A program made the position numbers and the translations under genes. A DNA stretch of 64,000 nucleotides from Escherichia coli. Its GTDB lineage: Bacteria > Pseudomonadota > Gammaproteobacteria > Enterobacterales > Enterobacteriaceae. Where the stretch lies: the NCBI RefSeq assembly GCF_002854065.1, contig NZ_CP024147.1; one strand, 5' to 3'. The notes under the pieces were generated by a model. It was given only the letters and a program-made list of their open reading frames with translations. It searched no databases and was not told the origin of the DNA. Below are positions 54,770-57,572 of this stretch, one piece after another; within the stretch, counting starts at the first letter, position 1, and every line of letters starts with the position of its first letter.

Positions 54770-55615
54770 ATGTCCACGACATGGTTTGTAGGAGCCGACT
54801 GGCTCGCCGAACATATTGATGACCCGGAAATTCAGATTATCGATGCCCGCATGGCGTCGCCTGGACAGGAAGATCGTAACGTTGCTCAGGAGTATCTGAA
54901 TGGACATATTCCCGGCGCAGTGTTTTTTGATATCGAAGCGCTTTCTGATCACACTTCCCTGCTTCCGCACATGCTGCCGCGCCCGGAAACGTTCGCCGTG
55001 GCGATGCGTGAATTAGGCGTTAACCAGGATAAGCACCTGATTGTCTATGACGAAGGTAATCTTTTCTCAGCCCCACGAGCATGGTGGATGCTGCGCACCT
55101 TTGGTGTAGAGAAAGTGTCGATTCTGGGGGGTGGACTTGCAGGCTGGCAGCGCGATGATCTGTTGTTAGAAGAAGGTGCAGTAGAGCTGCCGGAAGGAGA
55201 GTTTAACGCCGCGTTTAATCCTGAAGCAGTGGTGAAAGTAACCGATGTGTTATTGGCAAGCCATGAAAATACGGCGCAAATTATTGATGCCCGCCCGGCT
55301 GCACGTTTTAACGCAGAAGTTGATGAACCTCGCCCAGGTTTACGTCGCGGACATATTCCCGGTGCATTGAACGTTCCGTGGACGGAACTGGTGCGCGAAG
55401 GCGAACTAAAAACGACCGATGAACTGGATGCGATATTTTTTGGTCGCGGCGTCAGCTATGACAAACCGATTATCGTCAGCTGCGGCTCTGGTGTAACAGC
55501 AGCCGTGGTTTTGTTGGCACTCGCGACGCTGGATGTGCCAAACGTGAAACTGTACGACGGCGCATGGAGTGAATGGGGCGCGCGGGCAGATTTACCGGTT
55601 GAGCCATTGAAATAA
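54770..55615 (+). CDS. sseA: 3-mercaptopyruvate sulfurtransferase SseA (tandem rhodanese domains)
   Basis: 281 aa from MSTTWFVGADWLAEH...; active-site CGSGVTA. Confidence 0.9.
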   Translation: MSTTWFVGADWLAEHIDDPEIQIIDARMASPGQEDRNVAQEYLNGHIPGAVFFDIEALSDHTSLLPHMLPRPETFAVAMRELGVNQDKHLIVYDEGNLFSAPRAWWMLRTFGVEKVSILGGGLAGWQRDDLLLEEGAVELPEGEFNAAFNPEAVVKVTDVLLASHENTAQIIDARPAARFNAEVDEPRPGLRRGHIPGALNVPWTELVREGELKTTDELDAIFFGRGVSYDKPIIVSCGSGVTAAVVLLALATLDVPNVKLYDGAWSEWGARADLPVEPLK

Positions 55616-55631
55616 GCTTTTTACAGGCAAT

Positions 55632-55660
55632 AAAAAACCGCCGAATTTGGCGGTTTTTTA
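55632..55660. terminator. Bidirectional Rho-independent terminator (sseA on + strand; candidate antisense sRNA on - strand)
   Basis: AAAAAA-CCGCC-gaattt-GGCGG-TTTTTT, with runs on both sides. Confidence 0.75.
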
Positions 55661-55731
55661 TTGCTGGTCTGGTTCGCGGCCTTTCCAGCAGGTTGACTTG
55701 TGTTGCCGGAGCAACGCAGGCACCCCACAGT
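55635..55731 (-). ncRNA. Candidate divergent antisense sRNA, copy 1 (RyfB/TimR-like)
   Basis: TTGACA -35 on the - strand (55761-55766) with a weak -10; predicted 5' end falls on a 16 nt core (55717-55732) whose complement matches the ryfA-like 5' region (55879-55894); bounded by the bidirectional terminator. Confidence 0.35.
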
Positions 55732-55812
55732 GTTGAAATACTCTCTTTTATGCCTGGCTGTGTCAAGATAATAAACAGAGTAATTATTCAAACATGAGAG
55801 TATTATTCTTAA

Positions 55813-56116
55813 TGGCCCTTTTCGCCGTCTCGCAAACGGGCGCTGGCTTTAGGAAAGGATGTTCCATGACCGTAAATACAGGCACCCCACAGTGCTTGCT
55901 ATCGCGGCAATATCGCCAGTGGTGCTGTCGTGATGCGGTCTTCGCATGGACCGCACAATGAAGATACGGTGCTTCTGTATCGTACTTATTGTTTCTGGTG
56001 CGCTGTTAACCGAGGTAAATAATAACCTGAGTCTCTCCGGCAACAATTTACTGGTGGTTAACAACCTTCAGAACAGCAGGTAAGCCCGAATGCCGCCCTT
56101 TGGGGCGGCATATTTA
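55813..56116 (+). ncRNA. ryfA: ryfA-like transcript, copy 1 (putative type I toxin mRNA)
   Basis: TATTAT -10-like box at 55801-55806; strong hairpin terminator GCCGCCC-ttt-GGGGCGGC plus T run at 56092-56116; span about 304 nt. Confidence 0.5.
55958..56083 (+). CDS. Small hydrophobic protein (41 aa, MKIRCFCIVLIVSGALLTEVNNN...), candidate type I toxin (TimP-like), copy 1
   Basis: ATG overlaps by ATGA the stop of an upstream 31-codon ORF (55866..55961) that has an ideal SD (AGGAAAGG, 7 nt spacing); N-terminal 17-residue hydrophobic segment; stop 8 nt before the terminator hairpin. Confidence 0.45.
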   Translation: MKIRCFCIVLIVSGALLTEVNNNLSLSGNNLLVVNNLQNSR

Positions 56117-56314
56117 GATTATCCGATTCTGTTTAAAGTCACGCAAAAAACCACCCCAGCGACGTTCATAGAATGGCGCAATATGTTCGATATTAAAATG
56201 ACCTGGCTTATTAGTCCGAATTCAGACAAATATAAACAAATCCCGCTCAATATTAAAAATACTAACCGGTAAAAGATATTACTTAAACATGTAAATTCAC
56301 TTTCTTTAAGCAAC

Positions 56315-56345
56315 AAAAAACCGCCAAAATCAGGCGGTTATTTGT
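56315..56345. terminator. Bidirectional hairpin terminator, copy 2 of the repeat unit
   Basis: AAAAAA-CCGCC-aaaatca-GGCGG-TTATTTGTT. Confidence 0.6.
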
Positions 56346-56414
56346 TGCCGGTTTGGTTCGCGGCCTCTCCAGCAGATTGACTTGTGTTGCATGAGCAACG
56401 CAGGTGCTTCACAG
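56318..56414 (-). ncRNA. Candidate divergent antisense sRNA, copy 2 (RyfB/TimR-like)
   Basis: Conserved TTGACA -35 on the - strand (56445-56450), AATATT -10-like box about 18 bp downstream; 5' core 56401-56415 matches 56560-56574 in the copy-2 ryfA-like 5' region. Confidence 0.35.
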
Positions 56415-56494
56415 CAGAGCAATATTCGCCAGCAACTCTCTTTTTGTCAAGCAAAAGAGAGTAATTATTGTTTATTTAGCGTATTATCGACACC

Positions 56495-56798
56495 GGCCCT
56501 TTCCGCCGTCTCGCAAACGGGCGCTGGCTTTAGGAAAGGATGTTCCGTGGCCGTAAATGCAGGTGTTTCACAGCGCTTGCTATCGCGGCAATATCGCCAG
56601 TGGTGCTGTCGTGATGCGGTCTTCGCATGGACCGCACAATGAAGATACGGTGCTTTTGTATCGTACTTATTGTTTCTGGTGCGCTGTTAACCGAGGTAAA
56701 TAATAACCTGAGTCTCTCCGGCAACAATTTACTGGTGGTTAACAACCTTCAGAACAGCAGGTAAGCCCGAATGCCGCCCTTTGGGGCGGCATATTTTA
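56495..56798 (+). ncRNA. ryfA: ryfA-like transcript, copy 2
   Basis: Same architecture as copy 1; terminator hairpin 56773-56790 with a T run overlapping the sseB stop codon. Confidence 0.5.
56639..56764 (+). CDS. Small hydrophobic protein (41 aa), candidate type I toxin, copy 2
   Basis: Identical protein to copy 1 (single synonymous difference TTC to TTT); preceded by a GTG-initiated 31-codon ORF (56547..56642) with the same SD and ATGA overlap. Confidence 0.45.
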   Translation: MKIRCFCIVLIVSGALLTEVNNNLSLSGNNLLVVNNLQNSR

Positions 56799-57572
56799 GA
56801 TTATCCGGTTCTGTTTAAAGTCACGCAAAAAACCACCCCAACGACGTTCATAGAATGGCGCAATATGTTCGGTAATAAAGTGGCTAATTCCTTTTTCCCC
56901 TTTTTTCACCTGACAAATATCGATTGGTTCATCGCCAGGTAATGTATCGGTCGCTACACTTCCCGCCGCCTGAATAATTTCTTCGATATCACCATCGGCT
57001 TCAATGCCAATAAGTAAATTAGGCTGTGCCTCTTCGTTCTCTTTAATTGAACATATAAAAGCACGCTTCACCGGCTTAATAGTTTTAAATAAGGTGGTGA
57101 GTGAATCAATCATTTGTGCTGGCGGCTCTGCGACTTCCGATAATATTAGCGATTCACCGCCTTCCAGTACTTCCTGGCTACTCAGCGGATTCCCTTCTTC
57201 ACCAATCAACAAACTGATTTCACGCGGCATAAATTCTTTACCGGTTGGCAGTTTGGCATTAAGGAAGAGCGTTTCGCCAAGGGTCATCTCAAACAATGTG
57301 CGAACGGGCATTACTACAAATGCCTGTTCGTCTTCAACCGCCTGTTGAAGTGCTTCTAACGAGGTAAAAAAAGGAATGACGCTGGTGCCGTCTTCTTTTT
57401 CCCAATGCTGTAAATCAAGCGCACTATCTTCAACCACAGCCTCGCCCTGCGCCGCCGTACCAGGCACCCAGACGGTGGATCCCAGTAGAGTACGGAAAAA
57501 GGCCGGGCGGTGCGCCGGTTCGGTTGCTGCTTTTTCCAGCAGGTCTTCAAGTTCGTTTTTTGTTTCGGACAT
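56796..57572 (-). CDS. sseB: Protein SseB (enhancer of serine sensitivity)
   Basis: 258 aa from MSETKNELEDL... Confidence 0.9.
   Translation of the reverse strand: MSETKNELEDLLEKAATEPAHRPAFFRTLLGSTVWVPGTAAQGEAVVEDSALDLQHWEKEDGTSVIPFFTSLEALQQAVEDEQAFVVMPVRTLFEMTLGETLFLNAKLPTGKEFMPREISLLIGEEGNPLSSQEVLEGGESLILSEVAEPPAQMIDSLTTLFKTIKPVKRAFICSIKENEEAQPNLLIGIEADGDIEEIIQAAGSVATDTLPGDEPIDICQVKKGEKGISHFITEHIAPFYERRWGGFLRDFKQNRII

Follow-up and report, generated by a model that had tools for sequence, protein, structure and literature searches.

Tandem timPR (ryfA/ryfB) type I toxin-antitoxin modules between sseA and sseB of Escherichia coli, with a leader reading frame that is most likely incidental

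Introduction

In Salmonella Typhimurium, ryfA is the mRNA of TimP, a protein for which toxicity and membrane localisation were shown by Andresen et al. in 2020, and a divergent small RNA (sRNA), TimR, pairs with the 5' untranslated region (5'UTR) of this mRNA and blocks TimP translation (PMC7667032). Eleftheraki and Holmqvist (2024) described the Salmonella leader as four stem-loops (SL1–SL4), with the Shine-Dalgarno (SD) sequence trapped in SL4; a 7-bp pseudoknot between SL1 and SL3 is indispensable for TimP initiation, and TimR binds SL2 and destabilises it (PMC11228461). Fris et al. (2017) found tandem ryfA1/ryfA2 and ryfB1/ryfB2 genes with a 5-nt variable region in Shigella dysenteriae, where RyfB1 lowers the RyfA1 level specifically and RyfA1 overproduction eliminates ompC mRNA (PMC5333039). 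The toxin, the antitoxin, the tandem siblings and a candidate upstream open reading frame (ORF) have all been published previously, and timP is routinely annotated in RefSeq.

Here we analyze a 64,000-nucleotide stretch of an Escherichia coli genome (RefSeq assembly GCF_002854065.1, contig NZ_CP024147.1; hereafter the window) that carries two ryfA copies. A preliminary description, made from the letters of the window, had proposed that each copy encodes a 31-codon leader ORF, preceded by its own SD and translationally coupled through an ATGA overlap to a 41-residue hydrophobic peptide, in the manner of a type I toxin. We conclude, with a probability of about 0.88, that the locus is a tandem pair of timPR (ryfA/ryfB) type I toxin-antitoxin modules, a system already known, placed between sseA and sseB, and that the leader ORF in them is incidental. 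The coupled leader ORF, the sole potentially new element, is not supported: it fails comparative tests and is contradicted by two published experiments.

Results

Two full-length ryfA copies lie between sseA and sseB

Both copies matched the ryfA covariance model of Rfam over its full length, far above the gathering score of 80 bits:

55812..56116, + strand: ryfA1/timP1 mRNA, full length (Rfam RF00126, 315.7 bits, model positions 1–296)
56493..56797, + strand: ryfA2/timP2 mRNA (Rfam RF00126, 313.8 bits, model positions 1–296)
56090..56116, + strand: ryfA1 intrinsic terminator (hairpin 56090–56111), a 9-bp stem with seven GC pairs followed by a T-run, from terminator prediction and the Rfam alignment
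56771..56797, + strand: ryfA2 intrinsic terminator, from terminator prediction

The transcription start of ryfA1 was placed at about 55814 by homology to the Salmonella +1. In copy 1, the purine-rich tract AGGAAAGG (55851–55858) is followed by an ATG at 55866 that opens a 31-codon frame, MTVNTGTPQCLLSRQYRQWCCRDAVFAWTAQ, closed by the TGA at 55959–55961; the 41-codon ORF, MKIRCFCIVLIVSGALLTEVNNNLSLSGNNLLVVNNLQNSR, opens at ATG 55958 and stops at the TAA at 56081–56083. Copy 2 has the same layout shifted by +681, with a GTG at 56547, the ATGA at 56639–56642 and the ORF at 56639..56764. Differences between the two 305-nt copies number 14, and nine of these, at copy positions 55–82, produce both the change of leader start codon and five amino-acid changes in the leader frame. 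Both copies encode the same 41-aa product. Reading of the window and the ORF listing bore out every coordinate given for the two copies in the preliminary description, and the copy comparison its statements that the 41-aa product is shared and that the leader frames differ at five residues. Its distance of 8 nt from the timP1 stop to the terminator holds if the stem is counted from GCCGCCC; by the stem that the prediction tool reports, the hairpin begins 6 nt past the stop.

The genomic context is that of timPR, with sseA upstream of the modules and sseB downstream. The stretch 55600–56900 is 100% identical to E. coli EC1515, in which RefSeq lists, in order, sseA, timP, a partial sseB pseudogene, timP and sseB, both timP genes standing at window-equivalent coordinates; in K-12 MG1655, timR (b4811), ryfA (b4440) and timP (b4812) are annotated at the equivalent locus. 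Mapping the EC1515 annotation onto the window placed the pseudogene between the two copies:

56114..56200, - strand: sseB 3'-end fragment (pseudogene)

The presence of this 87-nt fragment after copy 1 implies that the duplicated unit comprised TimR, ryfA and the end of sseB. The two-copy form is rare, the whole two-copy query being found at 95% identity or more in 88 of 5,426 complete E. coli genomes.

The Rfam IS128 RNA (RF00125) also scores 227 bits between the copies (56147–56357, + strand) and matches the equivalent place in K-12 (locus L122, 716–924). We rejected a separate IS128 sRNA, as the match covers inter-copy filler and, read on the opposite strand, the terminator of the second antitoxin (56319–56339); IS128 looks like a locus-specific intergenic segment and not an independent sRNA.

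The 41-codon ORF is TimP

Both 41-codon ORFs belong to the TimP family:

55958..56083, + strand: timP1 coding sequence, 41 aa, small toxic inner-membrane protein TimP (NCBIfam NF040796; RefSeq WP_001491247.1 at identical coordinates)
56639..56764, + strand: timP2 coding sequence, 41 aa, protein identical to timP1 (NCBIfam NF040796; RefSeq annotation)

The product scores 77.7 bits against NF040796, whose curated cut-off is 45 bits, over residues 1–39 of 41, and in a collection of 15 billion proteins an exact match, named TimP, is recorded for 775 contigs. Its N-terminal hydrophobic segment reaches a Kyte-Doolittle 11-residue mean of 2.9. A word-index search with TimP matched Escherichia and Shigella only, and Pfam holds no family for either the 41-aa or the 31-aa peptide. 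The earlier suggestion that the hydrophobic peptide carried on ryfA is TimP, the toxin of a type I system, is thereby upheld by family match, by annotation and by the divergent TimR found with each copy (below).

To compare alleles, we assembled 18 enterobacterial loci, nine E. coli genomes spanning the identity range and the two window copies. The 18 loci came from a pattern scan of species-representative genomes with GCGGTCNNNGCANNGACCGCAC and were all confirmed by Rfam (159–313 bits); the scan yielded at least 18 enterobacterial loci, while most of the matches listed were chance occurrences in GC-rich genomes and none of those listed came from Salmonella or Klebsiella. Every full-length homolog examined, from Escherichia to Yersinia, Rahnella and Erwinia, keeps an intact TimP ORF of 38–41 codons, with indels that are all multiples of 3. 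Over the N-terminal 20 codons, the ratio of nonsynonymous to synonymous variation (pN/pS) is 0.45, as against 0.78 and 1.07 in the other frames. Judged from these alignments, the 41-codon ORF is more than a chance frame.

An in-frame ATG lies four codons before the TimP start in each copy (55946–55948 and 56627–56629), in the loop and 3' arm of SL4. We rejected the 45-aa start that it would provide (ATG 55946, MDRT-MKIRC..., used in a paper on uropathogenic E. coli, UPEC), as the codon is AAG in Salmonella, Rahnella, Erwinia and some Yersinia. Because this upstream ATG is not conserved, the 41-aa start is the conserved one; the NCBIfam model and RefSeq both begin TimP at MK, and the Salmonella start-codon mutant marks the downstream ATG as the start.

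The leader is a conserved RNA structure

The ryfA transcript is about 303 nt long and begins with a 145-nt timP leader that folds into four stem-loops, given here for copy 1:

55818..55857, + strand: SL1, with a lower stem formed by 55818–55823 and 55852–55857, paired in 97.3% of cells across 25 homologs
55871..55898, + strand: SL2 (stem-loop 55879–55898) with the TimR1-binding site (55871–55894), which has a 16-nt perfect core at 55879–55894
55901..55934, + strand: SL3, whose apical GCCAGUG (55915–55921) pairs with SL1 55841–55847 in a 7-bp pseudoknot
55935..55954, + strand: SL4, which hides the timP SD region (GGAC); all seven pairs are invariant in the 25 homologs

Six of the eight AGGAAAGG bases form the 3' arm of the SL1 lower stem. 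The upper part of SL1 (CGCUGGC, 55841–55847) is the 5' partner of the pseudoknot, and SL2 holds the 5-nt variable region at 55883–55887.

When the Rfam structure was projected onto the 25-sequence alignment, 96.5% of cells in SL1–SL4 formed standard pairs, compared with 38–46% in controls with slid partners, and five pairs carried compensatory changes. For the pseudoknot, all 175 cells were paired (100%; slid controls 15–77%), with three compensatory pairs, and all seven pairs form in both window copies, as expected of a timPR leader. Thermodynamic folding gave a minimum free energy of -118.3 kcal/mol for the 305-nt RNA (z = -5.0) and recovered SL2, SL3, SL4 and a hairpin holding the timP start codon; SL4 alone folds at -11.3 kcal/mol, close to the -11 published for Salmonella. 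The conservation of the leader region thus reflects base pairing in the RNA, in helices and pseudoknot, and not the coding of a peptide.

Differences between the copies probably set antitoxin specificity

A divergent sRNA with an SL2-complementary 5' end and a terminator stands upstream of each copy:

55632..55731, - strand: TimR1 (= RyfB1), predicted copy 1 antitoxin sRNA, by homology to K-12 timR b4811
56315..56415, - strand: TimR2 (= RyfB2), predicted copy 2 antitoxin sRNA, by homology to K-12 timR

The 5' end of TimR1 is complementary to timP1 SL2, and its 3' end is an intrinsic terminator made of an 11-bp terminal hairpin followed by a U-run. By eye, promoter-like elements precede it (-35 TTGACA at 55766–55761, -10 AGTATT at 55742–55737), and the published RyfB1 cloning primer, CACTGTGGGGTGCCTG, corresponds to 55717–55732 (- strand) as well as to the complement of 55879–55894, a 16-mer. 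TimR2 has a comparable TTGACA-18-AATATT (56450–56421, - strand) and a terminator at 56339–56319 (- strand).

We computed duplex energies with RNAduplex between the SL2 region and the 5' 24 nt of each TimR, since full-length RNAs gave meaningless whole-molecule duplexes:

TimR1 with timP1 (cognate): -34.4 kcal/mol
TimR2 with timP2 (cognate): -35.9 kcal/mol
TimR1 with timP2 (cross): -24.6 kcal/mol
TimR2 with timP1 (cross): -16.3 kcal/mol

The TimR/timP pair of a third class, C, found in other strains, is equally self-specific (-35.9 kcal/mol). A role in specificity had already been suggested for the 5-nt variable region (PMC5333039). The TimR site overlaps codons 2–10 of the leader frame, and the five leader residue differences correspond to the SL2 nucleotide changes by which each mRNA fits its own TimR. 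The nine differences at copy positions 55–82 fall within or close to SL2. From these alignments and predicted duplexes, the inter-copy differences appear to set antitoxin specificity and not to encode a peptide.

More broadly, E. coli contains at least three mutually specific SL2/TimR classes, A (CAGGCACCCCACAGUG), B (GCAGGUGUUUCACAGC) and C (GCAAGCGCGUCUCAGC), seen in the window (55871–55898 and 56552–56579) and in loci L122, L124 and L126–L129. Cognate duplexes of these classes lie at about -34 to -36 kcal/mol and non-cognate ones at -12 to -25 kcal/mol. Within the window, TimR1 could pair with timP2 through G-U wobbles (-24.6), and TimR2 pairs poorly with timP1 (-16.3).

The leader frame behaves as an accidental frame

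The two frames proposed as coupled leader ORFs are as follows:

55866..55961, + strand: copy 1 leader ORF, 31 codons, running through SL2–SL4 and judged incidental (comparative tests, gfp fusion)
56547..56642, + strand: copy 2 leader ORF, 31 codons, opened by GTG and judged incidental (ORF listing, comparative tests)

Among the homologs, neither the start codon nor the openness of this frame is conserved. The start position reads:

ATG: class A E. coli (window copy 1, O157:H7), Citrobacter, Superficieibacter, two Rahnella and one Yersinia
GTG: class B E. coli (window copy 2, K-12)
GCG: class C E. coli alleles and E. whittamii
ACG: most Yersinia, Pantoea, Erwinia and two Rahnella

Allele-specific 71-nt queries against the 5,426 complete E. 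coli genomes found class A (ATG) in 547, class B (GTG) in 2,022 and class C (GCG) in 2,993 (about 55%), so that over half of E. coli genomes lack a start codon at the leader position; the class C genomes still hold an intact, annotated timP. The leader frame is interrupted by one or two in-frame stops in each of the 13 copies from Yersinia, Pantoea, Erwinia and Rahnella, and Salmonella also has a stop.

Nor is the substitution pattern of a coding type. Variable columns are spread over the three codon positions (16, 14 and 17 of 31 each) with no excess at the third. When the 147-nt leader was shuffled, the fixed TGA closed an ATG/GTG ORF of 31 codons or more in 11–23% of cases, and the ATGA overlap, with its TGA, exists because TimP begins Met-Lys (ATG AAR). 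Neither leader peptide is present in the 15-billion-protein collection, the 31-aa peptide has no NCBIfam match, and our literature search for ribosome profiling of E. coli ryfA turned up no evidence other than the TimP paper.

Two published sets of experiments can be placed directly on the window. Using oligonucleotides listed in the 2024 supplement, we reconstructed the initial 195 nt of the Salmonella transcript; the result aligns without gaps to 55814–56008, with 163 of 195 positions identical. On this alignment the AUG of the Salmonella upstream ORF (+53) corresponds to 55866 and the timP AUG (+145) to 55958, and the upstream-ORF stop TAG (+77) corresponds to a CAG at 55890, within the TimR-binding site. 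Mutation of that upstream AUG (+53–55) to AAG (mutant M1) left TimP translation unchanged, in the authors' words "ruling out translational coupling" (PMC11228461). Their M7' oligonucleotide swaps GGAGAGG, the counterpart of AGGAAAGG, for CCTTTCC; the M7+M7' double mutant translates TimP fully, and M7 alone, which leaves the purine tract unpaired, nearly abolishes translation (PMC11228461), so the role of the Salmonella tract is that of a helix 3' arm, not of a ribosome-binding site. In the S. dysenteriae study, gfp fused at the leader ATG gave no GFP (PMC5333039); the oligonucleotide used for that insert equals window 55807–55868 with 0 mismatches and ends at ATG 55866.

The coupling of a leader ORF to the toxin, as first proposed, does not survive these comparisons: the start codon varies, stops interrupt the frame, shuffles produce its like, the SD is paired in SL1 and the published tests are negative. 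The 31-codon frame is most likely not translated, an accidental frame that stays open through SL2–SL4 in some alleles and not a gene.

Rearranged modules occur in other genomes

Several genomes carry altered arrangements of the module. K-12 MG1655 (locus L122, about 557–1060) keeps the remains of a two-module ancestor, in the order timR b4811 (class B, distal), an approximately 24-nt stump of a deleted ryfA (about 735–758), the IS128 region, a class C TimR-like gene (about 880–977) without a class C target, and a class B ryfA/timP. By this order the annotated cognate antitoxin lies about 400 nt away from its target, and the proximal TimR-like gene is an orphan. In E. coli Z1323CEC0015 (L128, 372–625), the TimR directly upstream of ryfA/timP is of class B and the ryfA/timP itself of class C, with no class C TimR present; the duplex of this mismatched pair is predicted at -21.5 kcal/mol, versus -35.9 for the cognate, and this junction occurs at 95% identity or more in 22 of the 5,426 genomes.

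In E. coli 400660 (L130, about 646–730), a TimR gene body is fused to ryfA at the stretch of complementarity that the two share, GCAAGCGCGTCTCAGCG; a deletion has removed the ryfA promoter along with SL1 and the 5' half of SL2, and timP is still annotated. The fusion looks like recombination between the short antitoxin/target repeat. Two further chimeras are inferred from protein sequences. A 63-aa Escherichia albertii protein (P0033; MTVNAGTPQCLLSRQYRQWCCRDAV-RCFCIVLIVSG...) joins the leader frame in-frame to TimP from residue 4, which is consistent with loss of the 3' arm of SL4 and of the timP ATG in a 26-nt deletion between CGGT repeats. A 38-aa protein (P0063) appears to be the reverse chimera, with a TimP N-terminus and a leader-frame C-terminus.

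Discussion

On our reading, each ryfA transcript in the window is the mRNA of TimP, with SL4 hiding the timP ribosome-binding site. By extension from the Salmonella experiments, TimP translation would start only in the conformer in which the top of SL1 is paired to the top of SL3; the 5' end of TimR1 or TimR2 would pair with SL2 of its own mRNA, destabilise this pseudoknot and so block TimP synthesis; and TimP, when made, would insert in the inner membrane and be toxic. The leader frame is most likely not required for TimP translation and is probably untranslated.

Several observations weigh against this account or its parts. The pN/pS of the leader frame (0.68) is slightly below that of the other frames (0.95 and 1.03), in a set of few and related sequences. 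The gfp fusion held SL1 and the ATG only, without the downstream pseudoknot partner, and was assayed under one condition. The M1 result was obtained on a Salmonella upstream ORF just 8 codons long and so is not strictly a test of coupling for the 31-codon version of E. coli. Both the toxicity of TimP and the pseudoknot mechanism were demonstrated in Salmonella and not with these E. coli/Shigella alleles, and the ends and transcription starts of the TimR genes in the window were placed by homology. Finally, ryfA phenotypes in UPEC were complemented by alleles with a disrupted TimP ORF, and a 2026 study of avian pathogenic E. coli (APEC) states that a toxic peptide from E. coli ryfA remains to be determined; in light of these two studies, RyfA may also, or mainly, act as a regulatory RNA in E. 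coli/Shigella.

The first of these points bear on an arrangement like that of hok/mok, in which ribosomes would start at the ATG or GTG behind AGGAAAGG, read the leader through SL2–SL4, terminate at the ATGA, open SL4 and re-initiate at timP, with TimR blocking leader translation. Such a scheme would make sense of a layout that is present in both copies, of a full 31-codon ATG/GTG frame intact in Citrobacter, Superficieibacter and E. coli classes A and B, and of a TimR site lying over leader codons. We nevertheless regard it as very unlikely, given the GCG start in some 55% of E. coli genomes that keep timP intact, the ACG starts and in-frame stops of other genera, an SD sequestered within SL1 in 97% of cells, a negative gfp fusion at the exact site, the Salmonella mutants in which removing the SD-like arm spared translation and exposing it did not, and the 11–23% of shuffled leaders that yield such an ORF. 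Equally improbable, in our estimate, is a weaker form confined to the ATG and GTG alleles (classes A and B, about 45% of genomes), whereby the leader is occasionally translated if SL1 opens and termination at the ATGA provides a second, allele-specific route to unfolding SL4; were it true, class A/B alleles would be leakier or differently regulated than class C and Salmonella.

The UPEC and APEC results favor a different alternative, that in E. coli/Shigella RyfA works solely as a trans-acting sRNA with effects on ompC, stress responses, fimbriae and motility, that neither ORF is expressed and that RyfB/TimR is an anti-sRNA controlling the level of RyfA. The loss of ompC mRNA on RyfA1 overproduction and the specific lowering of RyfA1 by RyfB1 are in keeping with it. 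On the other side stand a TimP ORF that is intact in all full-length homologs with indels in multiples of 3, the low pN/pS of its N-terminal codons and the closeness of its N-terminal half to a Salmonella protein shown to be translated, membrane-bound and toxic; a regulatory role, moreover, does not exclude coding, and a dual-function RNA is possible. We consider the purely regulatory alternative unlikely, if a shade less so than leader coupling, and retain the reading as two timPR modules.

These results suggest caution with apparent translational coupling: where an SD, an ORF and an ATGA overlap look conserved within a structured leader, alleles should be compared before the layout is taken as coding. 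The assignment of the inter-copy differences to antitoxin specificity bears on cross-talk between the two modules, and on whether TimP is ever made in E. coli/Shigella, in which most work on RyfA has treated it as a regulatory RNA.

Comparison with known systems

The closest relative is timPR of Salmonella Typhimurium (PMC7667032, PMC11228461), which shares with the window the RF00126 RNA, the four-stem-loop leader, the SD in SL4, the 7-bp SL1–SL3 pseudoknot and a divergent, upstream TimR whose 5' end pairs with SL2. The TimP N-termini are closely similar (MKIRCFCIVLIVSGALL here, MKVRCFCVVLLVSGTLC in Salmonella). The window differs in having two tandem modules instead of one, a TimP of 41 aa with an Asn-rich tail instead of 38 aa, other SL2/TimR recognition sequences and an upstream frame open for 31 codons instead of 8, and in lacking an STM2534-like gene between sseA and the module; toxicity was demonstrated in Salmonella, whereas the E. 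coli alleles are known here from sequence.

The S. dysenteriae locus (PMC5333039) has the same tandem layout, the same 5-nt SL2 variable region and a divergent RyfB of about 100 nt, and its ryfA2 probe, TAAATGCAGGTGTTTCACAGCGCTT, equals window copy 2. In the variable region, its ryfA1 probe has GGCCCCCCAC against GGCACCCCAC in the window, which makes the window a close relative and not necessarily the strain of that study. There, RyfA was taken as non-coding; only the upstream 30-aa ORF was tested, and the TimP ORF was not recognised.

With hok/mok/sok of plasmid R1 the locus shares a small membrane toxin, a ribosome-binding site held within a hairpin, an overlapping frame ahead of the toxin and an antisense RNA whose action lies upstream of the toxin start. 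The mok frame, however, is conserved, translated and required, and hok mRNA needs 3' processing, whereas the frame upstream of timP lacks conservation, has a start that proved inactive in a reporter and is dispensable in Salmonella, and the timP mRNA is unprocessed. In tisB/istR-1 and zorO/orzO, as here, a divergent antitoxin pairs with a short (about 16–20 nt) stretch of the 5'UTR far upstream of the toxin ribosome-binding site, and in tisB an upstream structural element (a standby site or pseudoknot) is likewise needed for initiation. The tisB and zorO mRNAs differ in requiring 5' processing, while timP mRNA is reported to switch conformation without cleavage, and the toxins they encode are unrelated in sequence to TimP.

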